DNA from: Escherichia phage DCP2
Strand: one strand, 5' to 3'
Sequence record: OR780565.1
Length of the DNA: 64,000 nt
Positions within the stretch are counted from its first letter, which is position 1; each line of letters begins with the position of its first letter. Position numbers and translations under genes: made by a program. Below the pieces are notes generated by a model. That model ran no database searches. It was not told the origin of the DNA and saw only the letters and a program-made list of their open reading frames with translations. This document shows positions 8,785 through 14,634 of the stretch, piece by piece.

Positions 8785-9096
8785 ATGTTTTATGTATATG
8801 CGATAGTGTATAGAGATAAAGATGGATTTGCGGTGCCTGTTCCTCTTGATGAACATCGTCCTGCTATATTTTTTGAAAGGGAGATTGCTGATAAAGTATT
8901 TACAACTCTTAAAGAGCAGTATCAACTAGCTTTAGGTATGGGAATTCCGAGATTAGTCGAGACTCCACGCAAGTTTTGGTTTAATAAAATAGAAGTTAAA
9001 CATGTTAAGCCTGATGTAGACACACAAAGATTATATCGGCGAATTTTAGATACTGGGCGTATTGTTAGTATACCAATTGCAGGGAATTTACGATGA
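8785..9096 (+). CDS. hypothetical protein (103 aa, dda.1 position)
   Basis: ORF track; coupled to dda. Confidence 0.5.
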   Translation: MFYVYAIVYRDKDGFAVPVPLDEHRPAIFFEREIADKVFTTLKEQYQLALGMGIPRLVETPRKFWFNKIEVKHVKPDVDTQRLYRRILDTGRIVSIPIAGNLR

Positions 9097-10412
9097 CATT
9101 TGATGATTTGACCGAAGGCCAGAAAAATGCCTTTAACATTGTTATGAGGGCTATTAAAGAAAAGAAACATCATGTAACTATTAATGGACCTGCTGGTACT
9201 GGTAAGACTACTCTTACTAAGTTCATCATTGAAGCTTTAATATCTACGGGCGAAACTGGCATTATTTTAGCAGCTCCTACTCATGCAGCTAAAAAGATTC
9301 TTTCAAAACTATCAGGGAAAGAAGCGAGTACTATTCACAGTATTCTTAAAATTAACCCTGTAACATATGAAGAAAACGTTCTTTTTGAACAAAAAGAAGT
9401 ACCGGATTTGGCTAAATGCAGAGTATTAATCTGTGACGAAGTGTCAATGTATGATAGAAAGCTATTTAAAATTCTGCTTTCAACTATCCCGCCATGGTGT
9501 ACTATAATTGGAATAGGCGATAATAAGCAAATTAGACCTGTTGACCCAGGAGAAAATACTGCTTATATCAGTCCATTTTTTACGCACAAAGATTTTTATC
9601 AGTGTGAACTCACTGAAGTTAAACGCAGTAATGCTCCTATTATTGATGTAGCTACTGATGTTCGTAACGGTAAGTGGATTTATGATAAAATTATTGATGG
9701 GCATGGAGTACGTGGATTTACCGGTGATACCGCTTTACGCGATTTTATGGTAAATTATTTTTCAATCGTAAAATCACTAGATGATTTGTTTGAAAATCGT
9801 GTGATGGCATTTACGAATAAATCTGTTGATAAGTTAAATAGCATTATTCGTAAAAAGATTTTTGAAACTGATAAAGATTTTATTGTCGGTGAAATTATTG
9901 TAATGCAGGAACCATTAATTAAAACATATAAAATTGATGGAAAGCCTGTGTCAGAAATTATTTTTAATAACGGACAATTAGTTCGTATTATAGAAGCAGA
10001 GTATACATCAACATTTGTTAAAGCTCGTGGTGTTCCTGGAGAATATCTAATTCGTCATTGGGATTTAACAGTAGAAACTTACGGCGATGATGAATATTAT
10101 CGTGAAAAGATTAAAATAATTTCATCTGATGAAGAGCTGTATAAGTTTAACCTATTTTTAGGTAAAACTGCAGAAACTTACAAAAATTGGAATAAAGGCG
10201 GAAAGGCTCCATGGAGTGATTTTTGGGATGCTAAATCACAGTTTAGTAAAGTGAAAGCACTTCCTGCATCAACATTCCATAAAGCTCAGGGTATGTCTGT
10301 AGATCGTGCTTTCATCTATACACCTTGTATTCATTATGCAGATGCTGAACTAGCACAGCAGCTTCTTTATGTTGGTGTCACTCGTGGTCGTTATGATGTG
10401 TTTTACGTATGA
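9093..10412 (+). CDS. dda: Dda DNA helicase (SF1B, 439 aa)
   Basis: MTFDDLTEGQKNAFNIVMRAI... Walker A GPAGTGKT; 439 aa as in T4 Dda. Confidence 0.95.
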   Translation: MTFDDLTEGQKNAFNIVMRAIKEKKHHVTINGPAGTGKTTLTKFIIEALISTGETGIILAAPTHAAKKILSKLSGKEASTIHSILKINPVTYEENVLFEQKEVPDLAKCRVLICDEVSMYDRKLFKILLSTIPPWCTIIGIGDNKQIRPVDPGENTAYISPFFTHKDFYQCELTEVKRSNAPIIDVATDVRNGKWIYDKIIDGHGVRGFTGDTALRDFMVNYFSIVKSLDDLFENRVMAFTNKSVDKLNSIIRKKIFETDKDFIVGEIIVMQEPLIKTYKIDGKPVSEIIFNNGQLVRIIEAEYTSTFVKARGVPGEYLIRHWDLTVETYGDDEYYREKIKIISSDEELYKFNLFLGKTAETYKNWNKGGKAPWSDFWDAKSQFSKVKALPASTFHKAQGMSVDRAFIYTPCIHYADAELAQQLLYVGVTRGRYDVFYV

Positions 10413-10433
10413 TTAAATTTGAGGAAGCTATTC

Positions 10434-10679
10434 GTGGAAATAACTAAAGACCAGTTTTATCTACTTCAAGATAAAGTGAGCGAAATTTATGAAATAGCTT
10501 ATAGTAAAAATTGTACAAATGTAAAAATTAAATCAGGCAAGTTAATGCTTCAACTAGAAGAAATTGAACGAGATTTGATTGCGTTAGAATTCTTTTGTGG
10601 TGAAGTGAAAACTGTTACAATCAGTGATTACGTTTTAGGTGAAATTAGCCATCTTTATAAGGCGGTTATTAATGATTGA
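10434..10679 (+). CDS. hypothetical protein (probable GTG start; ORF track starts at TTG 10419)
   Basis: SD GAGGAAG at 10421-10427 then GTG 10434; no in-frame ATG near the 5' end. Confidence 0.4.
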   Translation: MEITKDQFYLLQDKVSEIYEIAYSKNCTNVKIKSGKLMLQLEEIERDLIALEFFCGEVKTVTISDYVLGEISHLYKAVIND

Positions 10680-10914
10680 ATTAAGTTTGCATCAGTTTAA
10701 ATCTCTTATGACAAATGTTAAAGCTGTCATTCAAGAAAATTCAGGACCTGATAATGTTACTATTCGCGAAAAAGCTTTAAAGATAGTATACAGTCTTGAA
10801 GAGATACAAAAAGATATTGAATCTATGGCAAAATTTATTGATGAGCCCATTAATAAAGTTTATATCCAAGATTATACTGTAGGTCAAATTCGCGATTTAG
10901 CGAGGAAAATTTAA
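10672..10914 (+). CDS. hypothetical protein (80 aa)
   Basis: ATG 10672 with SD AAGGCGG, overlapping preceding stop. Confidence 0.45.
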   Translation: MIELSLHQFKSLMTNVKAVIQENSGPDNVTIREKALKIVYSLEEIQKDIESMAKFIDEPINKVYIQDYTVGQIRDLARKI

Positions 10915-11597
10915 TGTTTGATTTTATTATAGATTTTGAAACAATGGGAAGCGGTGAAAAAGCAGCTGTTATTGATTTGGCTGTTATTGCCTTTGACCCT
11001 AACCCAGAAGTAGTTGAAACATTTGATGAATTAGTTTCACGCGGCATTAAAATCAAATTTGATTTAAAAAGCCAAAAAGGACAACGTCTTTTTACTAAAA
11101 GCACCATCGAATGGTGGAAAAATCAGTCTCCTGAAGCTCGAAAAAATATTGCACCGTCAGATGAAGATGTAAGCACTATCGATGGTATTGTAAAATTTAA
11201 TGATTATATCAATGCGCATAATATCGATCCTTGGAAATCTCAAGGCTGGTGTCGTGGAATGTCGTTTGATTTTCCAATTTTAGTCGATCTCATTCGCGAT
11301 ATTCAACGTCTTAATGGCGTTTCTGAGAATGAACTTGACACATTTAAGTTAGAACCATGTAAATTCTGGAATCAGCGTGATATTCGTACCAGAATTGAAG
11401 CACTTCTCCTTGTTCGTGATATGACCACGTGTCCTCTTCCAAAGGGAACTTTAGATGGATTCGTTGCACATGATTCTATTCATGACTGTGCGAAAGACAT
11501 CCTGATGATGAAGTATGCTTTGCGCTATGCTATGGGTCTTGAAGATGCTCCATCAGAGGAAGAATGCGATCCTCTGTCTCTTCCAACAAAACGATAA
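10914..11597 (+). CDS. dexA: exonuclease A DexA (227 aa)
   Basis: 227 aa as in T4 DexA; N-terminal DEDD-like FIIDFETMG; synteny next to dda. Confidence 0.85.
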   Translation: MFDFIIDFETMGSGEKAAVIDLAVIAFDPNPEVVETFDELVSRGIKIKFDLKSQKGQRLFTKSTIEWWKNQSPEARKNIAPSDEDVSTIDGIVKFNDYINAHNIDPWKSQGWCRGMSFDFPILVDLIRDIQRLNGVSENELDTFKLEPCKFWNQRDIRTRIEALLLVRDMTTCPLPKGTLDGFVAHDSIHDCAKDILMMKYALRYAMGLEDAPSEEECDPLSLPTKR

Positions 11598-11660: not shown

Positions 11661-12161
11661 ATGAAAATTTATCGTGTTGAATCATCGTTTAGTATTCTTG
11701 ATTATGAAGATGCTATAACAATACGTCGAAATCTTTGTGTTCAAATAACGCCGTACAGGAGTATAATAGATTCATGGAGCGAAGAGTGGCTATTACACGT
11801 AGGTTATGACAGACCTAATTTTATGCATCATAGCGATAATAATAAAAGAATTCCTTTACCACACGAAGATAAACTATTAGTTAAAAACGCTAATATAGTA
11901 ATTAATACTAAGTTCAAGAAAGATTATGTTGGATTAGAATATCATATTCCAGGATGGTTTATAGCTCTTTATCATTTTGCTTTCGCTAGTGAATATGATA
12001 TGATGAGATGGTTCACACGAGAAGAGCGGGAAGAATTATCTTCTAAAGGATTTTATCTCGCTGTATACGAAGTTCCAGATGATCAAGTTATCATTGGCGG
12101 GCACCAAGTAATGTTCCGCAAATCGCATGCTGAACTCATAGATTTTATTGAAATGAGATAA
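11661..12161 (+). CDS. hypothetical protein (166 aa)
   Basis: ATG 11661 with SD GAGGA at 7 nt. Confidence 0.55.
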   Translation: MKIYRVESSFSILDYEDAITIRRNLCVQITPYRSIIDSWSEEWLLHVGYDRPNFMHHSDNNKRIPLPHEDKLLVKNANIVINTKFKKDYVGLEYHIPGWFIALYHFAFASEYDMMRWFTREEREELSSKGFYLAVYEVPDDQVIIGGHQVMFRKSHAELIDFIEMR

Positions 12162-12163
12162 TT

Positions 12164-12709
12164 ATGAAATTTAATTATAATCCTGAATACACACCAAATC
12201 CGGTAGCTAAACTGATTGATTTTGATGTTGTAAGCACTTATGTATGCCCTGTTAAACCACTGGAAATTAAGGAACCTACTATGACTACCACTATTGAAAT
12301 CGGCAAAACCTACAAACTGGTTGAACCTAAAATTAAAACTAATGCCTTGATTTCTGGTCATAAAACTCTGACTGATGTTTTTGGCGAAGGCGAATTTATT
12401 GTTGAAGAATTTGCCAAAAGTGAGTGGTTTGACAAATCTTACGTCATCCACAGTCGCCGGTTAGATAATAACAAAATAAAGAAAAACCTGGTTTATGAAG
12501 ATGAGTTCATCCTGTTCCAAGAAGTTGAAGAACAAGACCCTACAGACCTGTTGTGTGCTGCTGTGTCTATCCGTCGTCCTTTTGATAATCCTATCTGTGG
12601 TTGGGTAACAGACCAGTGGGTTGAAGACGGTGTTGAGCTTCTGAACGTTGTCCATGCAGGAGATTTTAGTGTAGTACCTCGTAGTGCGGTGGTAGCTATT
12701 TTAAATTAA
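12164..12709 (+). CDS. hypothetical protein (181 aa), paralog of the next ORF
   Basis: Shares C-terminal motif TDQWVEDGV-L-NVV...VP-S with ORF 12786-13274. Confidence 0.55.
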   Translation: MKFNYNPEYTPNPVAKLIDFDVVSTYVCPVKPLEIKEPTMTTTIEIGKTYKLVEPKIKTNALISGHKTLTDVFGEGEFIVEEFAKSEWFDKSYVIHSRRLDNNKIKKNLVYEDEFILFQEVEEQDPTDLLCAAVSIRRPFDNPICGWVTDQWVEDGVELLNVVHAGDFSVVPRSAVVAILN

Positions 12710-12785
12710 TAGTTTACAAACTCTTGGGACCAGAGTATAATGGTCCTGTGGAGTATAAAATCTTTTTAACAAGTGAGAGATAACT

Positions 12786-13274
12786 ATGATTATTAATATT
12801 GGTGAAATTGCTCGTGTATCTGATAAATCCCGTTCTAAAGCAGCAGGAAAATTGGTCGAAATTGCAAGCATTCAGCTTAAACATGGCGTTAAAGATGAAG
12901 ATTCTGAAGTAAAAGTGCGTATCATTCCTAAAGATGGAAAGTCTAAACCTCAGTTTGGCTATGTTCGTGCGAAATTTCTTGAATCTGCGTTTTTGAAAGC
13001 TGTTCCTGCTAAAGGAATTGAAACGATTGATACTTCACATGTAGGTGTAGACTTTAAGTGGAAACTCGGTCAGGCTATTAAGTTCATTGCTCCTCATGAA
13101 TTTAAATTTATCAAAGATGGTGGTGCGGCTGTTTATACTCGTGCTATGTGCGCATACATTACTGATCAGTGGGTAGAAGATGGTGTTAAGCTGTACAACG
13201 TGGTATTTTTAGGAACATACAAAGTCATTCCTGAAAGCTGGATTAAACACTATAGCAAAGCTCTCTATGCATAA
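12786..13274 (+). CDS. motB: hypothetical protein (162 aa; size and position of T4 MotB)
   Basis: 162 aa at the T4 motB position; symbol positional only. Confidence 0.45.
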   Translation: MIINIGEIARVSDKSRSKAAGKLVEIASIQLKHGVKDEDSEVKVRIIPKDGKSKPQFGYVRAKFLESAFLKAVPAKGIETIDTSHVGVDFKWKLGQAIKFIAPHEFKFIKDGGAAVYTRAMCAYITDQWVEDGVKLYNVVFLGTYKVIPESWIKHYSKALYA

Positions 13275-13446: not shown

Positions 13447-13662
13447 ATGAAACGTAAAATTGTTCAGAACTGCACTAATGACGAATTTGAAGATGTATTA
13501 TTTGATCCAGATTTGGTAGTGGTTCAAAAAGAACATACCGTTAAGTTTACTCACTTGACTTCGGTTTATGTGTATGAAAAGGTTGGTGATAAACAACCAA
13601 TTTATGGCGTATTTCGTGAAATTACTGAAGATGGCACAACTTACTGGAAGGAAATTTATTAA
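13447..13662 (+). CDS. hypothetical protein (71 aa; size and position of T4 Cef)
   Basis: ORF track; ATG with SD GAGGAAA. Confidence 0.5.
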
Positions 13663-14083: not shown

Positions 14084-14260
14084 ATGCCAATGTATGATTA
14101 TAAATGCCAATCCGAAGATTGTGGGCATGAATATGAAAAAATTAAAAAGATTTCTGAACGAGAAAATGATGTTTGCCCTAAATGTCATCGTTTGTCTACT
14201 CGTCGGCCTTCTGCTCCTAAGCATGTGAATGGTGGATTTTACGACTTACTTAAAGGGTAA
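14084..14260 (+). CDS. FmdB-like zinc-ribbon protein (58 aa)
   Basis: MPMYDYKCQSEDCGHEYE...CPKCH: two CxxC pairs with the MPxYxYxC N-terminus typical of FmdB-family zinc ribbons; SD AAGGAA. Confidence 0.55.
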   Translation: MPMYDYKCQSEDCGHEYEKIKKISERENDVCPKCHRLSTRRPSAPKHVNGGFYDLLKG

Positions 14261-14262
14261 TT

Positions 14263-14634
14263 ATGTTTAAAATTGGTAAGAAATATCGTGTTCGCGAAGG
14301 TGAAGAAAAGAAATATCTACTTTCTTCTATTTATAGGAATGGTTCTATTAATGCCGTAATATCTACAAGCGAATTTATCGTTGAAGATATGAAAGGCCAT
14401 AATGTTACAATGATTAGTACAGCATCTGGAAATGATGGAAAAATTCTTCACAGTTTTCAGAGTAATGTTCTAATTTATGATGAAGAATTTGACTTCTTCG
14501 AAGAAGTTCCTGAAGATTTTGATTTTGAATGCACTATCACTATGAAATCTGGTGACCCTCTTTCTTTTACAGTTAAAGATGAAAGAAGTCGCTTGAGAAT
14601 TATTAGTCTCCTTCAAGCCATTAAATTTGAGTGA
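14263..14634 (+). CDS. hypothetical protein (123 aa)
   Basis: ORF track, ATG start. Confidence 0.5.
   Translation: MFKIGKKYRVREGEEKKYLLSSIYRNGSINAVISTSEFIVEDMKGHNVTMISTASGNDGKILHSFQSNVLIYDEEFDFFEEVPEDFDFECTITMKSGDPLSFTVKDERSRLRIISLLQAIKFE

Follow-up and report, generated by a model that had tools for sequence, protein, structure and literature searches.

The closest known relatives of the locus analyzed here are the products of the motB region of phage T4. T4 MotB is produced early and abundantly, and its expression on its own is highly toxic (PMC6070864). [quoted passage not shown] As to T4 MotB.1, its deletion left burst size and latent period unchanged, and its overexpression had no effect on an RNA reporter (PMC12152347). 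Son et al. (2021) reported that the C-terminal domain is conserved between MotB and MotB.1 and the N-terminal one different, that the pair may stem from a duplication, and that the copy number varies among the relatives, which proteins they distributed into four categories, the MotB.1 group comprising categories 2–4; the KOW-like barrel at the N-terminus of MotB has likewise been published (PMC7827196). Kim et al. (2025) described an LSm-like N-terminal barrel family, GoF/MotB.1/Frd.2, within the Tevenvirinae (PMC12152347).

The 64-kb window—that is, the whole stretch of 64,000 nucleotides of Escherichia phage DCP2 under analysis—contains two plus-strand ORFs of 181 and 162 aa separated by 76 bp, whose coordinates and lengths (Table 1) are exactly those given in the original prediction. 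The order of the early region, dda-dexA-motB.2-motB.1-motB-cef-goF-39, is the same as in T4 and its relatives, and the 2.1 kb surrounding both ORFs has 96–97% DNA identity with many Tequatrovirus genomes; these neighbors identify the region as the early segment of a T4-like phage (Tequatrovirus) that is known to be dispensable. We are highly confident that the two ORFs are motB and a 181-aa variant of motB.1, which lie next to each other among the early genes and are old partial paralogs. This paralogy is real and had been correctly interpreted in the original prediction, but it was already known because the relationship had been published by Son et al. (2021) and the barrel family by Kim et al. 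(2025). What we add is minor: the assignment of the shared domain to a predicted SH3/Tudor-like fold rather than an OB fold, its acidic core, a catalogue of architectures, a mobile short motif, and a probable error in the T4 reference.

Table 1. Features of the motB.1–motB region and its neighborhood; positions are those of the window.
Feature	Position	Strand	Remarks
dda helicase	9093-10412		neighborhood
Two small ORFs	10419-10914		between dda and dexA
dexA	10914-11597		neighborhood
motB.2-like gene	end at 12161		directly before the 181-aa ORF
motB.1-type gene, 181 aa	12164..12709	+	phrog_2333; slot between motB.2 and motB, as T4 motB.1
Conserved short motif in N-terminal extension (aa 17-36, KLIDFDVVSTYVCPVKPLEI)	12212..12271	+	low AF2 confidence
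N-terminal domain of 181-aa protein (aa 43-122), predicted "LSm-like" barrel	12290..12529	+	AF2, phrog_622
Shared C-terminal domain of 181-aa protein (aa 125-179)	12536..12700	+	core motif 12581-12685
Sigma-70-type promoter-like site TTTACA-17-TATAAT, 11/12	12713..12741	+	within the 76-bp gap before motB
motB gene, 162 aa	12786..13274	+	Pfam PF17613, phrog_1671
Shared C-terminal domain of MotB (aa 90-156)	13053..13253	+	core motif 13134-13238; first hairpin lengthened by 13-residue insertion
cef	13447-13662		neighborhood
goF, 139 aa	13662..14081	+	phrog_622 E 6.1e-40; T4-like gene order
Zinc-ribbon ORF, gene 39.2 slot	14084-14260		neighborhood
123-aa ORF, gene 39.1 slot	14263..14634	+	phrog_622 E 2.7e-29; phrog_2333 E 0.0032
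Gene 39 (topoisomerase subunit)	from 14966		neighborhood

The 162-aa ORF matched the Pfam motB family (PF17613) over its full length (positions 1–162, 350.7 bits, E 1.2e-105) as well as phrog_1671 (E 1.5e-76). It is the ortholog of T4 MotB, with which protein it shares the length of 162 aa, the genomic slot, the upstream promoter, and a full-length alignment containing few substitutions; by analogy, we assume that the function of T4 MotB carries over to the MotB of this phage. Its layout comprises a KOW-like N-terminal barrel (aa 1–67), a flexible linker (68–89), and the shared C-terminal barrel (90–156). The N-terminal domain was not matched at the sequence level by Pfam KOW (PF00467); in the family alignment it displayed an S-x-S-K-x-x-G segment, in which S15, S17, and G21 were invariant and K18 nearly so. 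Between motB and cef, one public record places a minus-strand 29-aa ORF under the name "Transcription regulatory protein motB"; its translation (LNIGVMRFRRVAAPLANFPFYSLSCFLYQ) had no obvious resemblance to MotB by eye, and we treated that entry as a misannotation.

The promoter-like site listed in Table 1 was the best-scoring one of the region, has a nearly identical sequence in T4, and carries a promoter annotation in phage wV7. Since this strong sigma-70-type site lies in the gap before motB, that gene would be read from an early promoter of its own and motB.1 from promoters further upstream. Between positions 11500 and 14300 no structured RNA was matched in Rfam at E up to 1, and the sole terminator candidate, on the minus strand inside cef, was not above the shuffle expectation.

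The C-terminal motif upon which the original prediction had been based was indeed present in both proteins, at residues 140–174 of the 181-aa ORF (FDNPICGWVTDQWVEDGVELLNVVHAGDFSVVPRS) and 117–151 of the 162-aa ORF (YTRAMCAYITDQWVEDGVKLYNVVFLGTYKVIPES). A pairwise BLASTP of the two proteins returned a single ungapped match of 35 residues (18/35 identical, 25/35 positive, E 4e-12), and the corresponding DNA contains a 61-nt direct repeat that is 70% identical (12591–12651 and 13144–13204). When either protein was searched by tblastn against the whole window, it found the other at E 1–3e-9, the next match having an E of at least 0.04; and in the six-frame translation of the window the C-terminal-domain HMM of each family matched the ORF of the opposite family, with E values of 5e-13 and 3e-14. 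Neither tblastn nor the HMMs revealed a third copy, and exactly two copies are accordingly counted in the window because nothing besides the two ORFs scored better than E 0.5 with the HMMs. Pfam motB recognized the 181-aa ORF at 35.7 bits—the curated gathering cutoff being 25—but only through residues 140–176, which correspond to model positions 117–153, so that this protein is a member of the family by way of its C-terminal domain alone.

To delimit the similarity, we collected homologs of both proteins, aligned nonredundant sets of them, removed the hybrid sequences of Klebsiella phages, and split the alignments into N- and C-terminal parts before comparing the profiles with hhalign. The C-terminal profiles aligned with a probability of 99.4% and an E of 5.6e-21 over 51 columns (residues 129–179 of the 181-aa ORF and 93–156 of MotB), with the MotB domain containing a 13-residue insertion between the first two strands relative to the 181-aa protein. 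The common unit is therefore a complete domain of some 55 residues (some 67 in MotB), and larger than the 30-residue motif that had first been noticed. The joint alignment of both lineages contained nine invariant positions, namely F140, D150, W152, E154, G156, L159, N161, V163, and V170 in the numbering of the 181-aa ORF. The N-terminal halves, in turn, did not match each other (hhalign E 0.39–0.84 with the hybrid Klebsiella-phage sequences removed), and are unrelated by sequence; nor did they match either C-terminal domain, and the C- and N-terminal domains within each protein gave only noise-level matches (E 0.06–0.6), with no sign of an internal duplication. A whole-protein hhalign run did produce an alignment of 131 columns that included the N-terminal halves, but we rejected its N-terminal part as an artifact because one of the two sets included proteins of Klebsiella phages in which a KOW domain resembling that of MotB precedes a C-terminal domain of the MotB.1 type. 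The proposal that a module was duplicated, leaving the two proteins with a common C-terminal domain but distinct N-terminal ones, is therefore sustained by a homology extending over about 55 residues and by N-terminal domains that belong to different families; the latter would be putative specificity domains.

Two explanations not involving an old homology would have to be considered for these observations. That the resemblance is due to chance or to the AT-rich composition of the phage DNA could be argued solely from the shortness of the visible motif, and such a coincidence is practically negligible in view of the E values of 4e-12 in the pairwise comparison, 1e-13 with the HMMs, and 5.6e-21 between profiles, along with a score that passed the curated cutoff of Pfam. 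That a recent duplication, or gene conversion between neighbors, rather than long-term selection on the protein, keeps the motif alike would be favored by the tandem arrangement, with the genes 553 nt apart, and by the direct repeat mentioned above; we nevertheless consider that explanation very improbable, since the core had only 59% nucleotide identity between the two genes, 10 of the 17 identical residues with degenerate codons were encoded by different ones, and the two lineages have remained separate across hundreds of genomes and several genera. The duplication, by contrast, is old and maintained by selection on the protein, to judge by that low identity in the core, the mere 7 shared codons in 17, and the lineage signatures—VELLNVVH in the MotB.1 type versus VKLYNVVF in the MotB type—that are kept distinct across genera.

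A tblastn search with the 59-residue domain located it in 1804 places within 899 phage records. The copy number, whose comparison among T-even genomes had been suggested, was variable: among 60 evenly sampled records, 10 had one copy, 36 had two, and 14 had three, with the one-copy records including T2 and several Klebsiella phages and the three-copy records being mostly of Mosigvirus. In RB69, for example, three such genes stand side by side: motB.1, motB, and another motB-like gene. Out of 1.84 billion cluster representatives, a profile search retrieved just 32 clusters with an E of 0.001 or lower, of which a few of the weakest, consisting of repetitive proteins of 361–842 aa, are probably spurious; in the remaining clusters, the domain was located at the C-terminus of proteins of 43–251 aa, the named distant members being from T4-like Klebsiella phages. 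A search with the C-terminal domain alone gave 40 candidates and was less informative than that exhaustive profile search. The domain was encountered in the following architectures: after a KOW-like barrel and a linker in MotB proper; after a KOW-like barrel, but as the MotB.1-type C-terminal domain, in Klebsiella phages and others; after an LSm-like barrel of the T4 type; after an extension plus an LSm-like barrel, as in this window; in that same form preceded by an extra 82-residue domain (ca. 250 aa, in the same genomic slot); and in a form with two tandem LSm-like barrels (P0272). Many N-terminal variants, of 143, 166, 181, and ca. 250 aa, plus one double-LSm-like form, occupy the MotB.1 slot.

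The 181-aa protein matched phrog_2333 over its full length (E 1.3e-88); 233 homologs were found, with the best 120 of those 233 being 73–93% identical, and ECML134_009 (= P0007), a protein in the table of Son et al. (2021), was 92% identical. It contains the MotB.1 signature, DPTDLLC...GWVTDQW[IV]EDGVELLNVVH...SVVPRS, and belongs to the MotB.1 group; public records label its gene as "MotB domain-containing protein" or "MotB-like transcriptional regulator." Its layout consists of an N-terminal extension, a β-barrel of the GoF/Frd.2 type, and the MotB-type C-terminal barrel. Residues 1–41 were effectively unmodeled by AF2 (pLDDT of about 40), and contain the conserved short motif of Table 1. The core of that motif, sought as the regular expression D-x-D-[ILVM]-x-[SCAHDE]-[MTILAH]-[YFR], was present in distant family members at other positions, for example directly before the C-terminal domain of KOW-type proteins; the motif thus changes position within the MotB.1/MotB family.

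In the N-terminal domain of the 181-aa protein, AF2 placed strands at 49–52, 77–85, 92–99, 104–111, and 118–121, with a helix at 60–73 (pLDDT 74–83). This domain matched phrog_622, the GoF family, at E 7.6e-4 (residues 43–125), and its closest relative in the window was the 123-aa ORF at 14263–14634, to which residues 46–121 were aligned by BLASTP at E 1e-4 (29% over 83 residues); GoF itself gave no BLASTP match, and the similarity to the T4 MotB.1 N-terminal domain was confined to 19 residues (E 0.004). The 123-aa ORF itself matched Pfam FRD2 at E 0.017, a score below the cutoff. From the model and from weak sequence similarity, we assign the domain to the GoF/MotB.1/Frd.2 LSm-like family as a predicted member. 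It resembles the GoF and Frd.2 proteins of Kim et al. (2025) in its predicted bent five-strand sheet and matches the phrog that contains GoF, phrog_622, but GoF and Frd.2 lack the MotB-type C-terminal barrel; the window thereby holds three members of the GoF-type barrel family, one of them fused to that C-terminal barrel.

T4 MotB.1 occupies the same slot between motB.2 and motB, belongs to the same phrog_2333, and is highly similar to the 181-aa protein in the C-terminal stretch of about 75 residues, whereas its N-terminal barrel has diverged almost beyond recognition from that of the 181-aa protein, which is nearer to the one of ORF 14263–14634, and the 40-residue N-terminal extension with its conserved motif is missing. 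The lengths differ as well: 181 aa here, 143 aa in the resequenced T4 MotB.1, and, according to the annotation of the T4 reference, 119 aa. In that reference (NC_000866), motB.1 contains a probable frameshift error, the 119-aa form being truncated inside the conserved motif.

AlphaFold2 models of both proteins were built with the family alignments. That of the 162-aa MotB (mean pLDDT 80.8, pTM 0.71) consisted of two five-strand barrels: the N-terminal one had strands at 8–11, 23–30, 41–46, 56–61, and 65–67, followed by a linker of low confidence (70–83, pLDDT below 50), and the C-terminal one had strands at 97–109, 115–131, 134–141, and 144–149, a three-residue helical turn, and a last strand at 153–156. 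The model of the 181-aa protein (mean pLDDT 68.8, pTM 0.44) had C-terminal strands at 133–136, 144–154, 157–164, and 167–172, a helical turn, and a last strand at 176–178. The strand order was thus the same in both C-terminal domains, as was the helical turn that separates strands 4 and 5, and neither had a helix between strands 3 and 4; pairwise alignment and structure prediction together extend the similarity beyond the short motif to a common predicted five-strand topology. The nearest solved folds—that is, the top PDB neighbors—were identical for both whole models, the two values for each fold being 8.7 and 8.0 with the PHF19 Tudor (6wau_A), 8.5 and 8.1 with the 53BP1 tandem Tudor (3lgf_A), and 7.6 and 7.3 with Spt5 KOW6-7 (5ohq_A); the ERCC6L2 Tudor, the R67 DHFR, and several PWWP, chromo, and BAH barrels were also common to both neighbor lists, and no cold-shock protein was among the 60 neighbors listed for either model. 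When the 181-aa model was compared with predicted viral structures by Foldseek, MotB.1-type proteins of several lengths were found; a MotB protein, from phage G9062, was at rank 10 (E 1.8e-5), and Serratia phage PS2 was represented by a "KOW domain-containing protein." The likeness to the 53BP1 tandem Tudor, the PHF19 Tudor, the Spt5 KOW repeats, and the KIN17 SH3-like tandem is at the level of the fold and derives from predicted structures, and the Pfam KOW and Tudor models had no match in these proteins at E up to 1.

These models bear upon an alternative already present in the literature, namely that the shared domain is an OB-fold nucleic-acid binder of the cold-shock type, with accessory N-terminal domains, so that both proteins would bind nucleic acid. 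The OB fold was put forward by Son et al. (2021) on the basis of HHpred matches of MotB 69–149 to the OB-fold domain of the archaeal aIF5A (1BKB, 2EIF; PMC7827196), and the C-terminal domain of the MotB in this window is in fact basic (net +4, pI 9.3). Both models, however, lack the helix between strands 3 and 4 that is the hallmark of the OB fold, and no cold-shock protein is among their listed neighbors; instead they contain five strands and, after strand 4, the short helical turn that is the hallmark of the SH3 fold, and have SH3-like neighbors at significant Z; the conserved core is moreover acidic across the family, and the whole 181-aa MotB.1 protein has a net charge of −10 and a pI of 4.8. 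We consequently regard the OB alternative as improbable, and the shared C-terminal domain is predicted to be an SH3/Tudor-like five-strand barrel, which fits better than an OB fold because the helical turn 4–5 is present and the helix 3–4 absent.

The 35-residue core had a net charge of −5 in the 181-aa protein and −1 in this MotB, the family medians being −4 for the MotB.1 type and −2 for the MotB type, with nearly all members being net acidic. A family-wide distinction between a basic C-terminal domain in MotB and an acidic one in MotB.1 failed, since the MotB-type C-terminal domains ranged from −10 to +4. Because almost every member has a net acidic core, the MotB-type domain spans that range, and the 181-aa protein has a charge of −10, we infer that the shared barrel is not a general DNA-binding surface and that the basic KOW-like domain is the better candidate; in this particular lineage, the basic C-terminal domain of MotB may contribute to DNA binding.

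MotB and MotB.1 proteins would then be modular two-barrel host-takeover factors, in which the choice of ligand probably falls to the N-terminal barrel—DNA in the case of the basic KOW-like domain of MotB, possibly RNA or a protein in that of the acidic MotB.1—and the shared C-terminal barrel would serve a common function other than bulk DNA binding, most likely the binding of a shared partner or self-association. A more specific version of this scheme, which we put forward as speculative and hold to be rather unlikely, is that the shared module is an SH3/Tudor-like "reader" that docks MotB and MotB.1 on a common basic partner, with the N-terminal barrels and the mobile motif bringing the cargo. 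D150, W152, and E154 alternate on strand 2, and L159, N161, and V163 likewise on strand 3, and would form an acidic-aromatic surface; the partner could be a nucleoid protein such as H-NS or StpA, or else a phage protein; and the exchangeable parts would be the KOW-like barrel or one or two LSm-like ones, together with the mobile motif D-x-D-V-x-S-x-Y...P-L. Quite unlikely, in our estimation, is that MotB.1 acts through MotB itself, in a hetero-oligomer formed by the C-terminal barrels in which the acidic MotB.1 tempers or redirects a toxic, DNA-coating MotB. The adjacency of the genes and their co-occurrence in most genomes (at about two copies per genome), the high toxicity of MotB on its own (PMC6070864), the opposite net charges of the two proteins, and the monomer and dimer bands of T4 MotB.1 in nonreducing SDS-PAGE (PMC12152347) are all compatible with such an association; but AlphaFold3 gave no confident MotB.1 homomultimer (PMC12152347), the Mosigviruses carry two motB genes plus motB.1, and T2 and many Klebsiella phages are single-copy, which circumstance implies that MotB works without MotB.1.

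Regarding T4 itself, the reference probably misstates MotB.1 as a protein of 119 aa, an error that could affect constructs designed from NC_000866. That frameshifted form, which is without three strands of the C-terminal barrel, may be the one employed in the published experiments on T4 MotB.1; if so, the lack of phenotype of MotB.1 would be uninformative. For the family at large, an SH3/Tudor-type barrel with an acidic core argues against the shared domain as the DNA-binding part of MotB, and because many N-terminal variants occur in the MotB.1 slot, the results obtained with T4 MotB.1 may not transfer to other phages. These considerations would be of practical value for the few groups working on the early "host-takeover" genes of T4.

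The N-terminal extension of ORF181, the product of the motB.1-type gene, carries a short motif, KLIDFDVVSTYVCPVKPLEI, whose core conforms to the pattern D-x-D-[ILVM]-x-[SCAHDE]-[MTILAH]-[YFR], usually with a P-L or a P-I a few residues later. Motifs of this type are kept across the MotB/MotB.1 family, though their location within the protein varies: in the KOW-type proteins the motif lies immediately N-terminal to the C-terminal barrel (e.g., the family member P0274, VVDTDVASMYLTPGLPLVIDPTDLLC), while in the ORF181-type proteins it precedes the LSm-like barrel. The motif in ORF181 was modeled by AF2 with low confidence, and we found no description of it in the papers on MotB and MotB.1 that were consulted.

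Features located in the window and in the RB69 comparison locus
Feature	Position	Remarks
Short motif KLIDFDVVSTYVCPVKPLEI	12212-12271	ORF181 aa 17-36
Possible alternative start, in-frame Met40 of ORF181	ATG at 12281	region 12269-12283
Short hairpin GGACCA...TGGTCC	12721-12745	loop holds the -10 hexamer of the motB promoter
Imperfect 20-nt inverted repeat, 3-nt loop	13305-13347	downstream of motB
123-aa ORF of the GoF/Frd.2 barrel family	14263-14634	gene 39.1 slot; phrog_622, E 2.7e-29
RB69 motB.1 region with the 29-aa ORF after it	L004:3180-3676	NC_004928.1 8376-8872

An AAGGAA lies 7 bases 5' of the in-frame ATG of Met40, from which initiation would give a 142-aa protein beginning at the same point as the T4 MotB.1. 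Two isoforms of ORF181, starting at Met1 and at Met40, are possible; the conservation of residues 1-39 at the protein level speaks for production of the long form. The initiation regions of motB.1 (12155-12175, GAGATAATTATGA) and motB (12777-12797, GAGATAACTATGA) are also similar; both show the ribosome-binding context typical of T4, and the likeness is probably not meaningful.

Published work gives MotB.1 as a protein of 13.8 kDa. When we compared the T4 reference gene (NC_000866.4 7291-7650, L003:892-1251; the same sequence as AF158101.6) with that of MT984581.1 (L002:2312-2743), we found in the former one additional G within the codons of the conserved DQWIEDGV motif, because of which the reference MotB.1 is shortened to 119 aa ("13.8 kDa") and ends in DQWIGRWR. 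In thirteen other records (ten of T4, together with T4T, RB55, and RB59) that G is absent, and the gene product has 143 aa and an intact C-terminal barrel; the extra base is probably a sequencing error of the reference. The 29-aa ORF following the RB69 motB.1, termed "Category 3" by Son et al. (2021; PMC7827196), looks like a frame-shifted tail of motB.1, since tblastn matches the C-terminal domain here in three separate segments spread over both annotated ORFs.

The nearest relative of the ORF181 N-terminal domain within the window is the 123-aa ORF of the gene 39.1 slot (Pfam FRD2, E 0.017), a protein dissimilar to the T4 gp39.1, which has 86 aa. As to the hairpin and the inverted repeat around motB, the former is also kept in T4; neither is followed by a T-run or has a match in Rfam.

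The GenBank records matched (e.g., OK274152.1, MZ189262.1, AP018814.1) disagree on the labels for motB.1 and its neighbours: the motB.1 slot goes by "adenylribosylating enzyme" in some and by "translational regulator" in others, and beneath that match there also stands the name "baseplate wedge subunit and tail pin"; motB.2 is named "exodeoxyribonuclease," and a helicase label stands on a small ORF downstream of dda.

Among the homologous proteins collected, P0160 (phage BYEP01; 43 aa) joins the start of motB.2 to the end of MotB.1; P0126 and P0130 (Klebsiella phages; 125-126 aa) combine a MotB-like KOW domain with a MotB.1-type C-terminal domain; P0272 (251 aa) contains the LSm-like barrel twice; and P0020 and P0111 (ca. 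250 aa) possess an additional 82-residue N-terminal domain, with the genomic slot unchanged (L005:3001-3750). These proteins are natural rearrangements of the module.
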